Source: a virus. Taken from it: DNA of 10,104 nucleotides. Both the position numbers and the translations under genes were made by a program. The stretch lies in the UHGV virus genome UHGV-0254305; one strand, 5' to 3'. Below, piece after piece: positions 1-10,104 of this stretch. Numbering within the stretch: the stretch's first letter is position 1; every line of letters begins with the position of its first letter. The notes under the pieces are model-generated. The model did no database searches. It had not been told where the DNA came from and saw nothing but the letters and a program-made list of their open reading frames with translations.

Positions 1-191
1 GCCGTTACGCACCACCCCGTCAGTAGCTGAACAGGAGGGACAGCTGATAGAAACAGAAGCCACTGGAGCACCTCAAAAACACCATCATACACTAAATCAG
101 TAAGTTGGCAGCATCACCCAAAGGCCTTTAAAAATTATGTCTCCTACCATTCTGTTAATTTCAAAATCACTTAACTGTGAATAATCCATTG

Positions 192-368
192 TCATTTCCT
201 CGCACGATATCTTAGCCACCGGATATCCCACAGGTGAGCTGTGTAATTGAAGGTTTTTACGTCAGATTCTTTTGGGATTGGCTTGCGTTTATTTCTGGAG
301 CGTTTCGTTGGAAGGTATTTGCAGTTTTCGCAGATGATGTCGGTGAAACTTCGTCGCTGTCGCCTCAT
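192..368 (-). CDS. ninE: NinE-family small basic protein (58 aa)
   Basis: Minus-strand ORF whose internal ATG at 368 overlaps the methyltransferase stop as ATGA (366-368 / 365-367). The translation [58 protein letters not shown] matches my memory of lambda NinE (CxxC, basic). The ORF track extends it to 458 using an upstream start inside the preceding gene. Confidence 0.75.
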
Positions 369-892
369 GCCGCCCTCCTGACGCCCTGCCCGATCGCCAT
401 CAATGCCGCTTTGGATACGGTAGTAAACATCCGTCGAGGACTGATGAACGGTCGCCAAATCAGCAGCATGGAGCCTTTGCTGTTTCCCTTCTTCTCCAGC
501 CCTGTCGATGGTTCGATAAAATTAATCCGTCCATCAGTGATAATGCGAACTTCGTCGACACTCTCCAGAGCCTTGCTGAACCATCCGACTGACATATCCT
601 CTGGCACAAGCATAACTACCGTCTGTCGCTGTTGTATGCACTGCTCAGCAGCTTTTTCCACCCACGGCCTGATATTGCTGTACGGTGGGTTATTCCAGAT
701 TGCACCGTGGCTTACCCACTCAGAATTGAGCGCGTCGTCGGCCTCAGTTAGCCAGTGAGCACACAGAGCATTTTTGTCGCTCGCTGCCGAATCCAGCCAG
801 AATCCAAACTCAATATCCAGTGCATCAAAAAGCCAAAGCGGCGTTTGCCAGCAGTCCTTGTCGTGTGCTGGCGTATTTGATTTGATAGTCAT
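365..892 (-). CDS. Phage DNA N6-adenine methyltransferase (Dam-like, 175 aa)
   Basis: Translation [26 protein letters not shown]...WNNPPYS contains the DxxWQTP motif and the NPPY catalytic motif IV of amino-methyltransferases. Its start ATG (890-892) overlaps the ninB stop (889-891) as ATGA. It sits where lambda carries ninC/ninD. Confidence 0.8.
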
Positions 893-1329
893 GCAGCCCG
901 ATCTCCCCATCTCGCTTTCCACTCCAGAGCCAGTCTCGCTTCGTCTGACCACTTAACGCCACGCTCTGTGCCGAATGCCTGTATAAGCTCTAATAGCTCC
1001 GCAAATTCGCCTACACGCATCCTGCTGGTTGACTGGCCTATTACCACAAAGCCATTCCCGGCAAGGTTAGGAACAACATCCTGCTGCTTTAATGCTGCGG
1101 TAAACACACACTTCCAGCTTTCTGCATCCAGCCAGCGACCATGCCATTCAACCTGACGAGAGACGTCACCTAAGCAGGCCCATAGCTTCCTGTTTTGGTC
1201 TAAGCTGCGGTTGCGTTCCTGAATGGTTACTACGATTGGTTTGGTTGGGTCTGGAAGGATTTGCTGTACTGCGTGAATAGCGTTTTGCTGATGTGCTGGA
1301 GATCGAATTTCAAAGGTTAGTTTTTTCAT
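889..1329 (-). CDS. ninB: NinB recombination protein (146 aa)
   Basis: Translation MKKLTFEIRSPAHQQNAIHAVQQILPDPTKPIVVTIQERNRSLDQNRKLWACLGDV... matches lambda NinB from memory. ATG at 1327-1329 (minus) is preceded by a GAGGGA ribosome-binding site; the ORF-track start at 1347 is a TTG six codons upstream. Confidence 0.9.
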   Translation of the reverse strand: MKKLTFEIRSPAHQQNAIHAVQQILPDPTKPIVVTIQERNRSLDQNRKLWACLGDVSRQVEWHGRWLDAESWKCVFTAALKQQDVVPNLAGNGFVVIGQSTSRMRVGEFAELLELIQAFGTERGVKWSDEARLALEWKARWGDRAA

Positions 1330-1341
1330 GACTTCCCTCTC

Positions 1342-1378
1342 CCCCAAATAAAAAGGCCTGCGATTACCAGCAGGCCTG
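1342..1378 (-). terminator. tR2: Intrinsic terminator, tR2-like (between ren and ninB)
   Basis: On the minus strand: stem AGGCCTGC / GCAGGCCT (1354-1377) followed by TTTTTATTT. This is the position where lambda has tR2. Confidence 0.6.
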
Positions 1379-1402
1379 TTATTAGCTCAGTAATGTAGAT
1401 GG

Positions 1403-1693
1403 TCATCTTTTAACTCCATATACCGCCAATACCCGTTTCATCGCGGCACTCTGGCGACACTCCTTAAAAATCAGGTTCGTGCTCATCTTTCCTTCCCGTT
1501 CTTCCCTGGTAGCAAACCGGTAATACACCGTTCGCCAGACCTTACCTTCGATAACCAGAAGACCTGCCCGTGCCATTTTAGCCGCGGCCTGATTTATGCT
1601 GGTTACTGTTGCGCCTGTTAGCGCGGCAACGTCCGGCGCACAGAAGCTATTATGCGTCCCCAGGTAATGAATAATTGCCTCTTTGCCCGTCAT
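1403..1693 (-). CDS. ren: Ren protein (96 aa)
   Basis: Translation MTGKEAIIHYLGTHNSFCAPDVAALTGATVTSINQAAAKMARAGLLVIEGKVWRTVYYRFATREEREG... matches lambda Ren from memory. ATGA overlap with the P stop. Confidence 0.9.
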   Translation of the reverse strand: MTGKEAIIHYLGTHNSFCAPDVAALTGATVTSINQAAAKMARAGLLVIEGKVWRTVYYRFATREEREGKMSTNLIFKECRQSAAMKRVLAVYGVKR

Positions 1694-2391
1694 ACACTTG
1701 CTCCTTTCAGTCCGAACTTAGCTTTAATTTCTGCGATCTTCGCCAGAGCCTGTGCACGATTTAGAGGTCTACCGCCCATAACAGGAAGTTGTTTTACTGG
1801 TTCAGGTATCGTCTCACCACGGTTAATTCGCGCTGTCATACAGGTCAGTTCATCGGCAGCCTTGCGCCGTAATTCCGCATCAGTAAGCGCATTGGCCCGC
1901 ATGTTCTGATACAGGTTGGTAACCAGCCAGTAGTGCGCGTTTGATTTCCACGGATAAGACTCCGCATCCGGATACAGGCCTCGCTTCCGGCAATACTCGT
2001 AAACCATATCAACCAGCTCGCTGACGTTTGGCAGTCCGGCGATAACGGATGCTTCTTCCCGGCACCATGCAACAAACTGCCCGGGTGATGGCAGAAATGG
2101 TCGATTCTGCCGACGGGCTACGCGCATTCCTGCGTTAACCTGTTCCATTGTGGTGATCCCGTTTTCCCGGAAAGCCAGAACCCACTGGCGGCGGATTTCG
2201 TTCAGTTCGTTCTGGTCACGGTTAGCCAGACTCGCCGGGAAAGTTGCCAGTAACTGGCTGAACACACCGTTGATGATCTGCGCTACCTGCTGTACCTGTG
2301 GCTTTTCGTCGTACTGTTCCGGCATGTTGTTGGCGATCCGACGCATCTGCTCACGGTCAAAGTTAACCATCTGTGCGGCGATGTTTTTCAT
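1690..2391 (-). CDS. P: Replication protein P (DnaB helicase loader, 233 aa)
   Basis: Translation MKNIAAQMVNFDREQMRRIANNMPEQYDEKPQVQQVAQIINGVFSQLLATF... matches lambda P from memory. ATGA overlap with the O stop at 2388-2391. Confidence 0.95.
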   Translation of the reverse strand: MKNIAAQMVNFDREQMRRIANNMPEQYDEKPQVQQVAQIINGVFSQLLATFPASLANRDQNELNEIRRQWVLAFRENGITTMEQVNAGMRVARRQNRPFLPSPGQFVAWCREEASVIAGLPNVSELVDMVYEYCRKRGLYPDAESYPWKSNAHYWLVTNLYQNMRANALTDAELRRKAADELTCMTARINRGETIPEPVKQLPVMGGRPLNRAQALAKIAEIKAKFGLKGASV

Positions 2392-3287
2392 AGATCCACC
2401 CCGTAAATCCAGTCAGTGTTTGTCAGGTCGAGTTTTGGTTTTCCGGCTGTCACGCCAGCCTGTTGCTTGTTACGGTTGATTTCGAGCTGGGTCCACTTGT
2501 CGCGGAGTTTGGCCGGACTCAGCACGTTACCGGACCAGAAGTTGTCCTGGCAGGCCCAGCGGAAAAGCACACACATATCGCGGTGGTTACGTCCGTCACG
2601 TTCACGCATCAGGCGGATATCGTTAGCCCACCCAGCAAAATTCGGTTTTCTGGCTGATGGCGCGATGGTCTTCACCATGTCAAACATCCACTCTGCGGCG
2701 GTCAGGTCTTCTGCTGTTCCCCACTTACTGCCGCTCTGAATTGCAGCATCCGGTTTAACCACAGAAAGATCGTTTTCTGGCTGGTCAGAGGATTCGCCAG
2801 AATTCTCGGACGAATAATCTTTTCTTTTTTCTTTTGTAATAGTGTCTTTTGTGTCCCCCTGTTTTGAGGGATAGCAATCCCCCAATTTGAGGGATGTTTT
2901 ATCCCTCGTTTTAGGGGATTTTCCCTCGTTTTGAGGGATACACCATTCTGAGATGTTTTTATTTGGTCCAAACATGCCGCCTTGCTGCTTGATAATATTC
3001 ATTCTGACGAGTTCTAACTTGGCTTCATTGCACCGTTTGACAGGTAACTTTGTAATCTCGCTAAGTTGAGAATCGGTGATTCTGTCCATTGGTTTATTCC
3101 ACCCATAGGTTTTACGCAGAATGGCAAGCAGCACTTTAAACTGTCGCTTGGTCAGATCTGCGCCCGAATAAGCCTCAAGCAGCATATTTGATAGTCTGGC
3201 GTAACCATCATCGAGATCTGCCACATTACGCTCCTGTCCGGCAAAGTTACCTCTGCCGAAGTTGAGTATTTTTGCTGTATTTGTCAT
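2388..3287 (-). CDS. O: Replication initiator protein O (299 aa)
   Basis: Translation MTNTAKILNFGRGNFAGQERNVADLDDGYARLSNMLLEAYSGADLTKRQFKVLLAILRKTYGWNKPMDRITDSQLSEITKLPVKRCNEAKLELVRMNIIKQ... matches lambda O from memory. AGGAG ribosome-binding site upstream; the ori iterons are embedded in the middle of the gene. Confidence 0.95.
   Translation of the reverse strand: MTNTAKILNFGRGNFAGQERNVADLDDGYARLSNMLLEAYSGADLTKRQFKVLLAILRKTYGWNKPMDRITDSQLSEITKLPVKRCNEAKLELVRMNIIKQQGGMFGPNKNISEWCIPQNEGKSPKTRDKTSLKLGDCYPSKQGDTKDTITKEKRKDYSSENSGESSDQPENDLSVVKPDAAIQSGSKWGTAEDLTAAEWMFDMVKTIAPSARKPNFAGWANDIRLMRERDGRNHRDMCVLFRWACQDNFWSGNVLSPAKLRDKWTQLEINRNKQQAGVTAGKPKLDLTNTDWIYGVDL
2810..2938. repeat. ori: Lambda-type replication origin: four ~18-bp iterons plus adjacent AT-rich region
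   Basis: Four tandem iterons of the form TCCCTC-N-GAGGGA at 2854-2871, 2878-2894, 2901-2918 and 2922-2938, each internally palindromic. They are flanked at 2810-2853 by an AT-rich tract (ttttcttttttcttttgtaatagtgtcttttg). This is the classic organisation of ori-lambda inside O. Confidence 0.85.
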
Positions 3288-3290
3288 AAT
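3262..3290 (+). promoter_or_regulatory. Po promoter for oop RNA
   Basis: -35 TTGAGT (3262-3267), 17-bp spacer, -10 CATAAT (3285-3290); transcription would start near 3297 and run antisense into the cII 3' end. Confidence 0.5.
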
Positions 3291-3296
3291 GACTCC

Positions 3297-3372
3297 TGTT
3301 GATAGATCCAGTAATGACCTCAGAACTCCATCTGGATTTGTTCAGAACGCTCGGTTGCCGCCGGGCGTTTTT
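3297..3372 (+). ncRNA. oop: oop antisense RNA (about 76 nt, antisense to the cII 3' end)
   Basis: Lies downstream of the Po-like promoter and ends at a GC-rich hairpin (ttgccgccgggcg) followed by TTTTTTATT at about 3350-3372. Position relative to cII and O matches lambda oop. Ends are approximate. Confidence 0.55.
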
Positions 3373-3613
3373 TATTGGTGAGAATCGCAGCAACTTGTCG
3401 CGCCAATCGAGCCATGTCGTCGTCAACGACCCCCCATTCAAGAACAGCAAGCAGCATTGAGAACTTTGGAATCCAGTCTCTCTTCCACCTGCTGATCTGC
3501 GACTTATCAACTCCCACAGCTTCCGCTGTCTTCTCAGTTCCAAGCATTGCGATTTTGTTAAGCAACGCACTCTCGATTCGTAGTGCCTCGTTGCGTTTGT
3601 TTGCACGAACCAT
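3320..3613 (-). CDS. cII: Transcriptional activator CII (97 aa)
   Basis: Translation MVRANKRNEALRIESALLNKIAMLGTEKTAEAVGVDKSQISRWKRDWIPKFSMLLAVLEWGVVDDDMARLARQVAAILTNKKRPAATERSEQIQMEF matches lambda CII from memory. ATG at 3611-3613 (minus). Confidence 0.95.
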   Translation of the reverse strand: MVRANKRNEALRIESALLNKIAMLGTEKTAEAVGVDKSQISRWKRDWIPKFSMLLAVLEWGVVDDDMARLARQVAAILTNKKRPAATERSEQIQMEF

Positions 3614-3626
3614 ATGTAAGTATTTC
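3588..3626 (+). promoter_or_regulatory. PRE-like CII-dependent promoter
   Basis: TTGC-N6-TTGC CII-binding direct repeat at 3591-3604 on the plus strand, overlapping the cII start codon region as in lambda PRE. Transcription would run toward cro (antisense) and cI. The -10 and start site are not resolved. Confidence 0.5.
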
Positions 3627-3692
3627 CTTAGATAACAATTGATTGAATGTATGAAAATAAATGCATACACCATAGGTGTGGTTTAATTGGAT

Positions 3693-3724
3693 GCCCTTTT
3701 TCAGGGCTGGGATGTGTAAGAGCG
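3693..3724 (-). promoter_or_regulatory. nutR: nutR (boxA + boxB N-utilisation site)
   Basis: On the minus strand: boxA CGCTCTTACA (3715-3724) and the boxB hairpin GCCCTGAAAAAGGGC (3693-3707), downstream of cro. Just beyond it is an ACACC-TAT-GGTGT hairpin in the tR1 position. Confidence 0.8.
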
Positions 3725-3732
3725 GGAATGTC

Positions 3733-5087
<1,355 letters not shown>

Positions 5088-5137
5088 TCCCCACCTCAAT
5101 CTCGATAACCAAAAAACAAACTATTTTCCGTTTAAAA

Positions 5138-5206
5138 ACAATGGAGTTTGTTTTTCACGCCCCTTTTTTACAATATTTCTTGTTTACAACATACAATCTT
5201 TCTTGT
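5138..5206. promoter_or_regulatory. OL: 434-type left operators OL3, OL2, OL1
   Basis: ACAA-N6-TTGT sites at 5138-5151 (ACAATGGAGTTTGT), 5170-5183 (ACAATATTTCTTGT) and 5193-5206 (ACAATCTTTCTTGT), upstream of nutL and N. Confidence 0.85.
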
Positions 5207-5211
5207 AATTT
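5183..5211 (+). promoter_or_regulatory. PL promoter
   Basis: -35 TTTACA (5183-5188), 17-bp spacer, -10 TAATTT (5206-5211), overlapping OL1/OL2; transcribes toward nutL and N. Confidence 0.5.
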
Positions 5212-5251
5212 TAAGCCATCAGCAGGACGCACTGACCACCATTGAAGGTGA

Positions 5252-5282
5252 TGCTCTTAAAAATTAAGCCCTGAAGAAGGGC
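5252..5282 (+). promoter_or_regulatory. nutL: nutL (boxA-like + boxB)
   Basis: boxB hairpin GCCCTGAAGAAGGGC at 5268-5282, preceded by the boxA-like TGCTCTTAA at 5252-5260 (consensus CGCTCTTA). Confidence 0.8.
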
Positions 5283-5440
5283 AGCATTCAAAGCAGAAGG
5301 CTTTGGGGTGTGTGATACGAAACGAAGCATTGGCCGGAAGTGCGAATCCGGATTAGCTGCAAATGAGCCAATCGTGGGGTGTTTTCGTTCAGGACTACGA
5401 CTCACACACACCACCAAAGCTAACTGACAAGAGAATCCAG

Positions 5441-5764
5441 ATGGATGCACAAACACGCCGCCGCGAACGTCGCGCAGAGAAACAGGCTCAATGGAAAGTA
5501 GCAAATCCCCTGTTGGTTGGGGTAAGCGCAAAACCAGTTAACCGCCCTATTCTCTCGCTGAATCGCAAACCGAAATCACGAGTAGAAAGCGCACTGAATC
5601 CGATAGACCTTACAGTGCTGGCTGAATACCACGAACAGATTGAAAGCAACCTGCAACGTATTGAGCGCAAGAATCAGCGCACATGGTACAGCAAGCCTGG
5701 CGAACGCGGCATAACATGCAGTGGACGCCAGAAAATTAAGGGAAAATCGATTCCTCTTACCTAG
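5441..5764 (+). CDS. N: Antitermination protein N (107 aa)
   Basis: Translation MDAQTRRRERRAEKQAQWKVANPLLVGVSAKPVNRPILSLNRKPKSRVESALNPIDLTVLAEYHEQIESNLQRIERKNQRTWYSKPGERGITCSGRQKIKGKSIPLT carries the arginine-rich boxB-binding motif and matches lambda N with a few substitutions (from memory). The ORF-track start at 5363 is an upstream in-frame extension. Confidence 0.95.
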   Translation: MDAQTRRRERRAEKQAQWKVANPLLVGVSAKPVNRPILSLNRKPKSRVESALNPIDLTVLAEYHEQIESNLQRIERKNQRTWYSKPGERGITCSGRQKIKGKSIPLT

Positions 5765-6316
5765 TTACTTAGATATTGGCCTTGGCTTTATCTCAATATT
5801 ATATGGATCATAGCTGGCAACTAATTCAGTCCAGTAAATATCCTCAATAGGGAATAATATATGCTTCCCGTTCCATCGGGAAAAAGTTTTGTTCAACACA
5901 CCAAGCTCAATCAACTCACTAATGTATGGGAATTGTTTTGATGTAACCACATACTTCCTGCCTTCATTAAGGGCTGCGCACAAAACCATAGATTGCTCTT
6001 CTGTAAGGTTTTGAATTACCGATCGCACTTTATCGTTTTGCATCTTAATGCGTTTTCTTAGCTTAAATCGCTTATATCTGGCGCTGGCAATAGCTGATAA
6101 TCGATGCACATTAATTGCTAGCGAAAATGCAAGAGCAAAGACGAAAACATGCCACACATGAGGAATACCGATTCTCTCATTAACATATTCAGGCCAGTTA
6201 TCTGGGCTTAAAAGCAGAAGTCCAACCCAGATAACGATCATATACATGGTTCTCTCCAGAGGTTCATTACTGAACACTCGTCCGAGAATAACGAGTGGAT
6301 CCATTTCTATACTCAT
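5765..6316 (-). CDS. sieB: Superinfection exclusion protein B (membrane protein, 183 aa)
   Basis: Translation MSIEMDPLVILGRVFSNEPLERTMYMIVIWVGLLLLSPDNWPEYVNERIGIPHVWHVFVFALAFSLAINV... has two hydrophobic helices and matches lambda SieB from memory. Convergent with N, with stops at adjacent bases 5764/5765. ATG at 6314-6316; the ORF track starts at a TTG one codon upstream (6319). Confidence 0.85.
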   Translation of the reverse strand: MSIEMDPLVILGRVFSNEPLERTMYMIVIWVGLLLLSPDNWPEYVNERIGIPHVWHVFVFALAFSLAINVHRLSAIASARYKRFKLRKRIKMQNDKVRSVIQNLTEEQSMVLCAALNEGRKYVVTSKQFPYISELIELGVLNKTFSRWNGKHILFPIEDIYWTELVASYDPYNIEIKPRPISK

Positions 6317-6443
6317 CAAACTGTAGGGGTTGTAATAGTTTATCCGATTTCTCGCTGTAGGGGTACACGAGAACCACCGAGCCTGATGTGGTTAAAAGAC
6401 AGGCACAATCTTTACTACCGCAATCCACTATTTAAGGTGATAT

Positions 6444-6530
6444 ATGGAAGAAGAATTTGAAGAGTTCGAAGAGCATCCGCAGGATGTAATGGAACAGTAC
6501 CAGGACTATCCGTATGACTACGACTATTGA
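6444..6530 (+). CDS. Small acidic protein, lambda orf28-like (28 aa)
   Basis: ATG at 6444 with an AAGGTGA ribosome-binding site at 6434-6440. Translation MEEEFEEFEEHPQDVMEQYQDYPYDYDY. Below the ORF-track length cutoff; in the position of lambda orf28 between sieB and ral. Confidence 0.45.
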   Translation: MEEEFEEFEEHPQDVMEQYQDYPYDYDY

Positions 6531-6693
6531 TAAGAATCAATGGTGTGGACAATTCAAGCGATGCAATGGATGCAAGCTGCAATCGGAATGCATGGTTAAG
6601 CCTGAAGAAATGTTTCCTGTAATAGAAGATGGGAAATATGTCGATAAATGGGCAATACGAACGACGGCAATGATTGCCAGAGAACTTGGTTAA
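6514..6693 (+). CDS. ral: Ral restriction-alleviation protein (59 aa as read here)
   Basis: Translation MTTTIDKNQWCGQFKRCNGCKLQSECMVKPEEMFPVIEDGKYVDKWAIRTTAMIARELG matches lambda Ral from memory. It overlaps the orf28 3' end in another frame. I recall lambda Ral as 66 aa; here no start codon exists further upstream before the in-frame stop at 6487. Confidence 0.8.
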   Translation: MTTTIDKNQWCGQFKRCNGCKLQSECMVKPEEMFPVIEDGKYVDKWAIRTTAMIARELG

Positions 6694-6850
6694 CAGAACA
6701 ACAAAGCTGCCTGATAGTGGCCTTTATTTTTGGCATAAATAACAGAATAAACACTGCACTGTGTATTCATTCCAACGAGTGAATACACGGAGCAATGTCG
6801 CTCGTAACTAAACAGGAGCCGACTTGTTCTGATTATTGGAAATCTTCTTT

Positions 6851-6877
6851 GCCCTCCAGTGTGAGGGCGATTTTTTA
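6851..6877 (+). terminator. Intrinsic terminator candidate upstream of ea10 (tL2-like)
   Basis: Stem GCCCTC (6851-6856) / GAGGGC (6863-6868) with loop CAGTGT, followed by GATTTTTTAT. Confidence 0.55.
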
Positions 6878-6896
6878 TCTATGAGGATATGAACAG

Positions 6897-7265
6897 ATGT
6901 CAAACATCAAAAAATACATCATTGATTACGACTGGAAAGCATCAATAGAAATTGAAATCGACCATGACGTAATGACAGAGGAAAAACTTCACCAGATTAA
7001 TAATTTCTGGTCAGACTCTGAATACCGACTCAATAAACACGGCTCTGTATTAAATGCTGTATTAATCATGCTGGCGCAATATGCTCTGCTTATAGCAATT
7101 TCGAAAGACTTAAATGCATATGGTGTTGTTTGTGAGTTCGACTGGGATGATGGAAATGGTCAGGAAGGATGGCCTCCAATGGATGGTAGTGAAGGAATAA
7201 GAATTACCGATATCGATACATCAGGAATATTTGATTCAGATGATATGACTATCAAGGCCGCCTGA
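6897..7265 (+). CDS. ea10: Ea10 (Ssb-like early protein, 122 aa)
   Basis: Translation MSNIKKYIIDYDWKASIEIEIDHDVMTEEKLHQINNFWSDSEYRLNKHG... matches lambda Ea10 from memory. GAGGA ribosome-binding site upstream. Confidence 0.9.
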   Translation: MSNIKKYIIDYDWKASIEIEIDHDVMTEEKLHQINNFWSDSEYRLNKHGSVLNAVLIMLAQYALLIAISKDLNAYGVVCEFDWDDGNGQEGWPPMDGSEGIRITDIDTSGIFDSDDMTIKAA

Positions 7266-7290
7266 GTGCGGTTTTACCGCATACCAATAA

Positions 7291-7315
7291 CGCTTCACTC
7301 GAGGCGTTTTTCGTT
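7291..7315 (+). terminator. Intrinsic terminator candidate between ea10 and cIII (tL3-like)
   Basis: Stem CGCTTC / GAGGCG (one G-U pair) with loop ACTC, followed by TTTTTCGTT. Confidence 0.4.
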
Positions 7316-7337
7316 ATGTATAAATAAGGAGCACACC

Positions 7338-7502
7338 ATGCAATATGCCATTGCAGGGTGGCCTGTTGCTGGCTGCCCTTCCGAATCTTTACTTGAACGA
7401 ATCACCCGTAAATTACGTGACGGATGGAAACGCCTTATCGACATACTTAATCAGCCAGGAGTCCCAAAGAATGGATCAAACACTTATGGCTATCCAGACT
7501 AA
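7338..7502 (+). CDS. cIII: CIII (FtsH/HflB inhibitor, 54 aa)
   Basis: Translation [54 protein letters not shown] matches lambda CIII. AAGGAG ribosome-binding site at 7326-7331. Confidence 0.95.
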   Translation: MQYAIAGWPVAGCPSESLLERITRKLRDGWKRLIDILNQPGVPKNGSNTYGYPD

Positions 7503-7614
7503 ATTCACTATCGCCACTTTTATTGGCGATGAAAAGATGTTTCGTGAAGCCGTCGACGCTTATAAAAAATGGATATTAATGCTGAAACTGAGATCAAGCA
7601 AAAGCATTCACTAA
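7471..7614 (+). CDS. kil: Kil (host cell-division inhibitor, 47 aa)
   Basis: Translation [47 protein letters not shown] matches lambda Kil from memory. It overlaps the cIII 3' end by 32 nt in another frame, as in lambda. Confidence 0.9.
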
Positions 7615-7985
7615 CCCCCTTTCCTGTTTTCCTAATCAGCCTGGCATTTCGCGGGCGATATTTTCACAGCTATTTCAGGAGTTCAGCCATGAACGCTTAT
7701 TACATTCAGGATCGTCTTGAGGCTCAGAGCTGGGCGCGTCACTACCAGCAGATCGCCCGAGAAGAGAAAGAGGCAGAACTGGCAGACGACATGGAAAAAG
7801 GCCTGCCCCAGCACCTGTTTGAATCGCTATGCATCGATCATTTGCAACGCCACGGGGCCAGCAAAAAAGCCATTACCCGTGCGTTTGATGACGATGTTGA
7901 GTTTCAGGAGCGCATGGCAGAACACATCCGGTACATGGTTGAAACCATTGCTCACCACCAGGTTGATATTGATTCAGAGGTATAA
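7569..7985 (+). CDS. gam: Gam (RecBCD inhibitor; 138-aa long form, 98-aa short form from internal ATG at 7689)
   Basis: Translation ...[98 protein letters not shown] matches lambda Gam from memory. The internal start at 7689 has a strong CAGGAG ribosome-binding site; the 7569 start has none. Confidence 0.9.
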
Positions 7986-7990
7986 AACGG

Positions 7991-8776
7991 ATGAGTACAG
8001 CACTCGCAACGCTGGCTGGGAAGCTGGCTGAACGAGTCGGCATGGATTCTGTCGACCCACAGGAACTGATCACCACTCTTCGCCAGACGGCATTTAAAGG
8101 TGATGCCAGCGATGCGCAGTTCATCGCATTGCTGATCGTCGCCAACCAGTACGGTCTTAATCCGTGGACGAAAGAAATTTACGCCTTCCCTGATAAGCAG
8201 AACGGCATCGTTCCGGTGGTGGGCGTTGATGGCTGGTCCCGCATCATCAACGAAAACCAGCAGTTTGACGGCATGGACTTTGAACAGGACAACGAATCCT
8301 GCACATGCCGGATTTACCGCAAAGACCGCAATCATCCGATCTGCGTTACCGAGTGGATGGATGAATGCCGCCGCGAACCATTCAAAACCCGCGAAGGCAG
8401 AGAAATCACGGGGCCGTGGCAGTCGCATCCCAAACGGATGTTACGGCATAAAGCCATGATTCAGTGTGCCCGTCTCGCCTTCGGATTTGCTGGTATCTAT
8501 GACAAGGATGAAGCCGAGCGCATTGTCGAAAATACCGCATACACTGCAGAACGTCAGCCGGAACGCGACATCACTCCGGTTAACGATGAAACCATGCAGG
8601 AGATTAACACTCTGCTGATCGCCCTGGATAAAACATGGGATGACGACTTATTGCCGCTCTGTTCCCAGATATTTCGCCGCGACATTCGCGCATCGTCAGA
8701 ACTGACACAGGCCGAAGCAGTGAAAGCTCTTGGATTCCTGAAACAGAAAGCCACTGAGCAGAAGGTGGCAGCATGA
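7991..8776 (+). CDS. bet: Bet (Red-beta single-strand annealing protein, 261 aa)
   Basis: Translation [99 protein letters not shown]... matches lambda Beta from memory. Confidence 0.97.
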
Positions 8777-9453
8777 CACCGGACATTATCCTGCAGCGTA
8801 CCGGGATCGACGTGAGAGCTGTCGAACAGGGGGATGATGCATGGCACAAATTACGGCTCGGCGTCATCACCGCTTCAGAAGTTCACAACGTGATAGCAAA
8901 GCCCCGATCAGGAAAGAAGTGGCCTGACATGAAAATGTCCTACTTCCACACCCTGCTAGCTGAGGTTTGCACCGGTGTGGCTCCGGAAGTTAACGCTAAA
9001 GCGCTGGCCTGGGGAAAACAGTACGAGAACGACGCCAGAACCCTGTTTGAGTTCACTTCCGGCGTAAATGTTATTGAATCCCCGATCATCTATCGCGACG
9101 AAAGTATGCGCACCGCCTGCTCTCCCGATGGTTTATGCAGTGACGGCAATGGCCTTGAGCTGAAATGCCCGTTTACCTCCCGGGATTTCATGAAATTCCG
9201 GCTCGGTGGTTTCGAGGCCATAAAGTCGGCTTACATGGCCCAGGTGCAGTACAGCATGTGGGTGACGCGAAAAGATGCCTGGTACTTTGCCAACTATGAC
9301 CCGCGTATGAAGCGTGAAGGACTGCATTATGTCGTGGTCGAACGGGATGAAAAATACATGGCTGGTTTTGACGAAATGGTGCCAGAGTTCATCGAAAAAA
9401 TGGACGAGGCACTGGCTGAAATTGGTTTTGTATTTGGGGAGCAATGGCGATGA
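8773..9453 (+). CDS. exo: Exo (Red-alpha 5'-3' exonuclease, 226 aa)
   Basis: Translation [92 protein letters not shown]... matches lambda exonuclease from memory. ATGA overlap with the bet stop. Confidence 0.97.
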
Positions 9454-9632
9454 AACATCCTCACGATAATATCCGCGTAGGCACGATCACTTTCGTCTAC
9501 TCCGTTACGAAGCGAGGCTGGGTATTTCCCGGCCTTTCTGTTATCCGAAATCCCCTGAAAGCACAGCGGCTGGCTGAGGAGATAAATAATAAACGGGGAG
9601 CTGTATGCACAAAGCATCTCCCGTTGAGTTAA
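9450..9632 (+). CDS. Lambda orf60a-like hypothetical protein (60 aa)
   Basis: ATG at 9450 overlaps the exo stop as ATGA and lies 8 nt downstream of a GGGGAG ribosome-binding site. Translation [60 protein letters not shown]. The ORF-track start at 9444 is too close to the ribosome-binding site. Confidence 0.8.
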
Positions 9633-9796
9633 GAACGAGTATCGAGATGGCACATAGCCTCGCTCAAATTGGAGTCAGGTTTGTGCCAATACCAGTAGAA
9701 ACAGACGAAGAATTTCATACGTTAGCCGCATCCCTTTCACAAAAGCTGGAAATGATGGTGGCGAAAGCAGAAGCAGATGAGAGAGACCAGGTATGA
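9605..9796 (+). CDS. Lambda orf63-like hypothetical protein (63 aa)
   Basis: ATG at 9605 with a GGGGAG ribosome-binding site at 9594-9599. Translation [63 protein letters not shown]. Confidence 0.8.
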   Translation: MHKASPVELRTSIEMAHSLAQIGVRFVPIPVETDEEFHTLAASLSQKLEMMVAKAEADERDQV

Positions 9797-9806
9797 CAAC
9801 CACGGA

Positions 9807-9992
9807 ATGCATTTTTCTGGCAGCGGGCTTCATATTCTGTGTGCTTATGCTTGCCGACATGGGACTTGTTCAATGACACCTCAGCAGGAAAACGCCCTTC
9901 GCAGCATTGCCCGTCAGGCTAATTCTGAAATCAAAAAAGCCAGACAGCAGTTTCCGGATAAAAACGTCGATGACATTTGCCGTAGCGGGTAA
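9807..9992 (+). CDS. Lambda orf61-like hypothetical protein (61 aa); alternative organisation possible
   Basis: ATG at 9807 gives MHFSGSGLHILCAYACRHGTCSMTPQQENALRSIARQANSEIKKARQQFPDKNVDDICRSG (61 aa, matching the name of lambda orf61). The ribosome-binding site is weak, and an overlapping ATGA-coupled 27-aa ORF exists (see findings). Confidence 0.6.
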   Translation: MHFSGSGLHILCAYACRHGTCSMTPQQENALRSIARQANSEIKKARQQFPDKNVDDICRSG

Positions 9993-10104
9993 TGACTCCA
10001 ACTTATTGATAGTGTTTTATGTTCAGATAATGCCCGATGACTTTGTCATGCAGCTCCACCGATTTTGAGAACGACAGCGACTTCCGTCCCAGCCGTGCCA
10101 GGTG

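Follow-up and report, generated by a model that had tools for sequence, protein, structure and literature searches.

A predicted DNA N6-adenine methyltransferase gene of the M.EcoVT2Dam type, already known and very common, lies between ninB and ninE in the lambdoid early region UHGV-0254305

Introduction

The protein closest to the subject of this report is the product of orf32 of phage VT2-Sakai (NP_050531), which was annotated as dam in the original record (AP000422) and is named M.EcoVT2Dam in REBASE; proteins of this type are also the dam products of the Shiga toxin (Stx) phages Phi24B, Min27 and others, and of HK97. According to a passage in PMC6602927 that cites Radlinska and Bujnicki 2001, M.EcoVT2Dam targets 5'-GATC-3'. 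In Phi24B the CM2 'dam' product, which is 100% identical to NP_050531, has been found in cultures of lysogens by immunological means, and the pattern of its transcripts tracks the lytic cycle (PMC3342100). Here we describe a gene whose product is identical to VT2-Sakai orf32 at 175 of 175 amino acids (aa) in the virus genome UHGV-0254305, the whole 10,104-nucleotide (nt) stretch of which is referred to as the window. The window is the early region of a lambdoid phage in reverse, with the rightward (PR) operon on the minus strand. The gene very probably encodes a solitary, single-domain, S-adenosylmethionine (SAM)-dependent DNA N6-adenine methyltransferase of the PF05869/TIGR01712 family, the identical M.EcoVT2Dam being reported to methylate GATC.

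Other described proteins resemble this one to differing degrees. The small phage enzymes of PF05869/TIGR01712 are likewise single-domain proteins of about 165-185 aa with a WQTP...NPPY arrangement, but the distant members share 26-43% identity with it, lie in other genome contexts and have mostly putative specificities; we take T1 Dam and Haemophilus HP1 Dam to be the other characterized members. Canonical Dam enzymes (E. coli Dam, T4 Dam, DpnM) differ in having DPPY, where NPPY is found here, and an inserted DNA-recognition domain; their solved chains span 241-258 residues compared with 175 aa, and the identity in structural alignments is 7-11%. M.EcoGV and M.EcoPA8orf6770P are prophage-borne, come from the same kind of phages and are annotated as 'GATC Dam homologue', but they have the MT-A70 fold and a DPPW motif, correspond to gp5 of phiPA2/phiPA8, and methylate 16S rRNA together with the partner PNB-2 (PMC10810198).

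The methyltransferase gene and its family

The gene and its two sequence motifs are placed as follows.
365-892, minus strand: coding sequence of the M.EcoVT2Dam-type N6-adenine DNA methyltransferase, 175 aa, with ATG at 892-890 and TGA at 367-365
839-850, minus strand: codons for W15-Q-T-P18, the N-terminal family signature (T17 and P18 without variation, W15 and Q16 conserved at 90% or more)
680-691, minus strand: codons for motif IV, N68-P-P-Y71, catalytic (read from the sequence; invariant in 42 homologues)

The original prediction had called an adenine methyltransferase of 175 aa at 365-892 with 'DxxWQTP' and NPPY motifs. The position and length are borne out by our reading of the open reading frame (ORF), although the minus strand had been left unstated. 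NPPY (residues 68-71) and WQTP (residues 15-18) are both present, but the residues around the latter are D11-K-D13-C-W-Q-T-P, so the spacing given was slightly wrong and the motif is either DxWQTP or DxxxWQTP. An alternative 195-aa form of the ORF, started at a GTG (365-952), runs into ninB; the ATG at 892 is the annotated start in all related records.

The hidden Markov model search that had been proposed as a check gives an unambiguous methyltransferase assignment. In a Pfam scan (E up to 0.01) the sole match is PF05869, 'DNA N-6-adenine-methyltransferase (Dam)', at 218.4 bits and E = 6e-65 against a curated cut-off of 28.1 bits, covering profile positions 1-167 of 169; because of this match the ORF is judged not to be a chance one. 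The NCBIfam equivalog model TIGR01712, 'phage N-6-adenine-methyltransferase', matches at 265.9 bits (cut-off 97.05 bits) over all of its 165 profile positions (1-165), and PHROGs returns phrog_111, 'DNA methyltransferase', at E = 9e-88. These assignments support the interpretation as an adenine methyltransferase. With full-length profile matches above the cut-offs, intact NPPY and WQTP, and no match in the same Pfam scan to canonical Dam, the protein belongs, as judged from its sequence, to the family of small phage enzymes to which Pfam gives the name 'Dam' and not to the canonical E. coli/T4 Dam family.

In an alignment of 42 homologues, reaching down to 59% identity, no variation is seen at N68, P69, P70, Y71, T17, P18 or D34, and conservation reaches 90% or more at D13, W15 and Q16; the WQTP signature may contribute to the cofactor pocket or to the pocket for the flipped base. 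A search of a 5.8-billion-protein collection returned 265 clusters, with PF05869 present in all 120 among the matches listed. Some database homologues have the methyltransferase domain fused to NinE, NinB, RusA or CII domains; these fusions probably stem from frameshifts, from read-through where ATGA overlaps occur, or from mosaic junctions of other kinds.

Predicted structure

An AlphaFold2 model built with the 42 homologues has a mean predicted local distance difference test score (pLDDT) of 83 and a predicted template modelling score (pTM) of 0.84, and consists of a compact alpha/beta core, the secondary-structure string of the model containing the core only. The modelled fold is of the class I SAM-methyltransferase (Rossmann-like) type and resembles N6-adenine methyltransferases; it is predicted to be a minimal N6-adenine methyltransferase core without a separate target-recognition domain. 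The best structural neighbour found by Foldseek is PCIF1, an RNA cap N6,2'-O-dimethyladenosine (m6Am) methyltransferase, with the DNA enzymes M.TaqI and Dam scoring nearly as high, and METTL3/14 and METTL4 matching weakly (E above 0.04). About 106 residues align structurally to the 243-residue E. coli Dam chain. All of the structural neighbours are at least 243 aa long and have extra recognition domains, compared with 175 aa here. Sequence searches of the PDB, with the single protein by phmmer and with a profile of the 42 sequences, gave only noise (E of at least 0.15), returning no solved structure for the family and not reaching E. coli Dam, T4 Dam or DpnM.

Position in the nin region

The gene lies between ninB and ninE, and the local features are these.
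889-1329, minus strand: ninB/orf recombination mediator, the translationally coupled upstream neighbour (PF05772, E = 2e-54; phrog_72)
889-892, minus strand: ATGA overlap of the ninB stop and the methyltransferase start (direct sequence reading)
365-368, minus strand: ATGA overlap of the methyltransferase stop and the ninE start (direct sequence reading)
192-368, minus strand: ninE, the translationally coupled downstream neighbour (PF05322, E = 3e-42)
362-888, unstranded: mosaic block without lambda counterpart, where lambda has ninC and ninD at 41085-42096 (blastn and lambda annotation)

The predicted ATGA overlaps on both sides are present, the plus strand reading TCAT at both 889-892 and 365-368 and thus ATGA on the coding strand. 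NinB is a single-stranded DNA-binding recombination mediator. Lambda was said to carry ninC and ninD between ninB and ninE, as its annotation confirms (873 and 174 nt, respectively). In blastn comparison with lambda, window 889-3726 is 98.2% identical to lambda 38247-41084 and the match ends exactly at the ninB stop, window 195-361 is 95.2% identical to lambda 42097-42263 and the match starts 7 nt inside ninE, and no homology to lambda is found between window 361 and 889. The swap therefore puts 527 bp and one gene in place of 1,012 bp and two genes in lambda, with junctions at gene borders, which is the classical pattern of lambdoid mosaicism. The lambda genes occupy the same slot in the nin region with the same translational coupling but encode unrelated proteins, NinC being a 290-aa product annotated as of the PAPS-reductase family and NinD a 57-aa product.

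The resemblance to VT2-Sakai is confined to this part of the window. The only stretch shared in blastn is window 195-899, comprising ninE and the methyltransferase gene, at 98.7% nucleotide identity, with the same ninB-ninE slot and ATGA coupling; VT2-Sakai has another ninB allele, other replication genes and another immunity region, whereas the window backbone is lambda/434-like (imm434 and lambda O, P, ren and ninB) and its segment is bounded by IS1. The methyltransferase gene and ninE therefore move together as a module from one ninB allele to another. The description of the gene as an orphan holds: its neighbours are NinB and NinE, the other genes of the window are standard lambdoid early genes, and no endonuclease-like ORF or restriction partner is found anywhere in the 10-kb window.

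Expression context

Two signals bear on the transcription of the gene.
3976-4004, minus strand: PR-like match to a sigma-70 promoter (TTGACA-17-GAAAAT), lying upstream of the 434-type cro; 10 of 12 positions agree in the promoter scan
1354-1377, minus strand: tR2-like, intrinsic-terminator-like hairpin and T-run between ren and ninB (terminator scan)

The methyltransferase gene points the same way as cro (434-type), cII, O, P, ren and ninB, and the promoter match is the presumed origin of the rightward early transcript. The hairpin position matches the ren-ninB gap of lambda, and we take it to be the position of lambda tR2. Lambda genes beyond tR2 depend on antitermination by N, and the genes past the hairpin here, that of the methyltransferase among them, would likewise need it; the window does contain an N gene. 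The placement of the gene on a delayed-early PR transcript in the original prediction is sound, given the strand, the PR-like promoter, the tR2-like terminator and the agreement with expression of the Phi24B gene.

Distribution

The 528-nt gene is present at 95% or greater nucleotide identity in 244 phage records, including wild lambda-like isolates, HK544, Sf6, Sf101 and many Stx1/Stx2 phages, and in the annotated phage records among the matches listed the gene neighbours are NinB and NinE, or unnamed. At the same threshold it is found in 1,566 of 5,426 complete E. coli genomes (~29%), at up to five places per genome; these copies are named 'phage N-6-adenine-methyltransferase' by the Prokaryotic Genome Annotation Pipeline (PGAP) and usually lie between ninB and ninE. 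The mosaic replacement proposed earlier is thus real, and exact with respect to lambda, but it is not new, being among the commonest alleles of the ninB-ninE slot. Of 50,697 phage records searched with tblastn, 2,134 carry distant PF05869/TIGR01712 members, at the 26-43% identity given above; T1-like coliphages and phages of Klebsiella, Vibrio and Lactococcus are among them.

IS1 bracketing and the remainder of the window

At its two extremities, 1-119/120 and 9988-10104, the window reproduces the ends of an IS1 copy (IS1B) at 100% identity, both in the same orientation. The IS1 part of the left end alone matches 73,030 places spread over 4,992 E. coli genomes. Intact prophages of 119 complete E. 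coli genomes align collinearly with the 9.87 kb enclosed by the IS1 ends, at identities reaching 98.9%; past this segment they carry ninX-rusA-Q at one end and xis-int at the other. A gene is cut at each junction.
120-189, minus strand: ninX-family gene, cut by IS1 after about 23 codons
9874-9987, plus strand: small hypothetical gene beyond DUF1382, cut by IS1 after 38 codons

Intact counterparts of both genes are present in NZ_AP021892 (locus L004, 2232-2573 and 12258-12473). The left junction between IS1 and phage DNA was matched over its full length in none of the complete E. coli genomes and exactly in none of the one-genome-per-species contigs, and no plasmid record covers 80% or more of the window. 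In what may be an IS1-rich genome, the early region could be the remains of a prophage between IS1 copies, or a unit resembling a composite transposon.

The remaining genes are typical of lambdoid phages. The immunity region (3733-4686) is of the phage 434 type, with a 210-aa cI at 4054-4686 and a divergent cro, and the replication genes O, P and ren together with ninB are lambda-like at the 98% level; the phage that matches the window best overall is Escherichia phage Chlobot, at 98.2% over 98% of the window. Downstream of cI, at the position of lambda rexAB, there is a plus-strand ORF (4611-5087) of 103-158 aa depending on the choice of start, with a hydrophobic, signal-peptide-like N-terminus, which is annotated as hypothetical in relatives.

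Weighing of alternative interpretations

Several points weigh against reading the gene as that of a GATC methyltransferase in action here. The assignment of SAM-dependent N6-methyladenine formation at GATC comes from the literature on the identical protein, and in the relevant passage of PMC6602927 the specificity is second-hand, by citation of the 2001 cloning paper; over-expression in such assays can cause off-target methylation, a caution quoted in PMC10810198. The 175-aa core has no recognizable target-recognition domain with which it would read GATC, and E. coli hosts are already Dam+, which makes the benefit to the phage doubtful; both points belong to the family as a whole and not to this locus. 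The segment is moreover bracketed by IS1 and carries an intact 434-type repressor gene, and the methyltransferase gene may be silent here.

The bareness of the catalytic core beside structural neighbours that all have recognition domains, and the place of the RNA enzyme PCIF1 at the head of those neighbours, would suit an adenine methyltransferase with relaxed or no DNA specificity, or one that favours RNA or single-stranded DNA, perhaps acting with a partner such as NinB. It could draw on precedent, since an MT-A70 enzyme of Stx phages regarded as 'GATC Dam-like' is a 16S rRNA methyltransferase needing a second subunit (PMC10810198), and phage-associated non-specific adenine methyltransferases are known (PMC3299994; Serratia prophage OS31, PMC7556043). 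These precedents nevertheless belong to other families (MT-A70 with DPPW), to which this protein has no Pfam match. It has no MT-A70 match and carries NPPY instead of DPPW; the Stx-phage rRNA methyltransferase was accordingly rejected as a counterpart, that enzyme being gp5, of the MT-A70 family and with a DPPW motif. The precedents for non-specific adenine methylation presumably form a ParB-linked family. PMC3299994 makes no mention of VT2, HP1 or PF05869, and we found in it no evidence linking the non-specific enzymes with this group. As M.TaqI and Dam score nearly like PCIF1, and the identical M.EcoVT2Dam is reported as GATC-specific in the passage cited above, we regard a departure from strict GATC specificity as very improbable. 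A further form of it, in which NinB and the Red system present the enzyme with its substrate, single-stranded or replicating DNA, or in which it works on RNA, with GATC methylation on over-expression being only part of its activity, would be about as improbable.

A different proposal concerns the state of the locus and not the identity of the protein, namely that the gene is an intact ORF carried silently in an IS1-bounded defective prophage and repressed by the 434-type cI, of no use to the cell or to a phage. The direct orientation of the IS1 ends, the truncation of ninX and of the small ORF, the continuation of related intact prophages to rusA/Q at one end and to xis/int at the opposite end, and the intact cI ORF (4054-4686) all accord with it, and single-molecule real-time (SMRT) sequencing of lysogens could not tell the contribution of the phage enzyme from that of host Dam (PMC6602927). 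But the ORF is 100% identical to a functional allele, no early gene of the window is disrupted, and the remainder of the prophage may lie past the IS1 copies, so that we think a silent passenger very unlikely. That the gene supplies the modification activity of a restriction-modification system would be extraordinary: beyond the general fact that many N6-adenine methyltransferases sit in such systems nothing points to it, and this role is excluded by the gene context, NinB and NinE being the neighbours in every record examined and no endonuclease-like ORF being present in the window. The solitary DNA adenine methyltransferase of the M.EcoVT2Dam type is accordingly the reading we prefer.

Possible role

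Following induction or infection, N-antiterminated transcription from PR would yield the solitary methyltransferase alongside the replication and recombination proteins. SAM would be held at the carboxyl ends of the first strands, with D34 (in the 'LDxAAS' strand) and E50 as candidate ligands; the GATC adenine would be flipped into the NPPY pocket and a methyl group moved to its N6. Lambda and P22 virion DNA are under-methylated by host Dam (PMC8022706), and the enzyme could top up Dam-type methylation where phage replication outpaces host Dam. Full GATC methylation could then shield phage DNA from MboI/DpnII-type restriction in new hosts, and the methylated DNA would appear 'old' to mismatch repair and to Dam-dependent regulation, whatever the level of host Dam. 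The 33 GATC sites in window 120-9987 could serve the enzyme as substrates and correspond to an observed/expected ratio of 0.69, within the range of other 4-bp palindromes; this is neither special avoidance nor enrichment, and decides nothing either way. The original prediction had spoken of protecting progeny DNA, which may not exist for this genome because the early region is bracketed by IS1.

The prediction had also noted ral, and a Ral-family gene is indeed present at 6514-6693 on the plus strand, but the suggested cooperation of the two genes in anti-restriction is speculation for which we found no supporting evidence. Ral acts on modification enzymes of the type I EcoKI type, by another mechanism. 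Ral here has 59 aa compared with 66 aa in Chlobot; truncation was considered and rejected, as the 59-aa form, under the name 'antirestriction Ral family protein', occurs in an intact prophage of E. coli and is a natural allele.

The methyltransferase gene is already known, curated and very common; the original prediction was right about it, and the feature is an ordinary one, with annotation in thousands of genomes. The locus has little discovery value, since an NCBI pipeline name, dedicated Pfam and TIGRFAM families and a REBASE name already exist.
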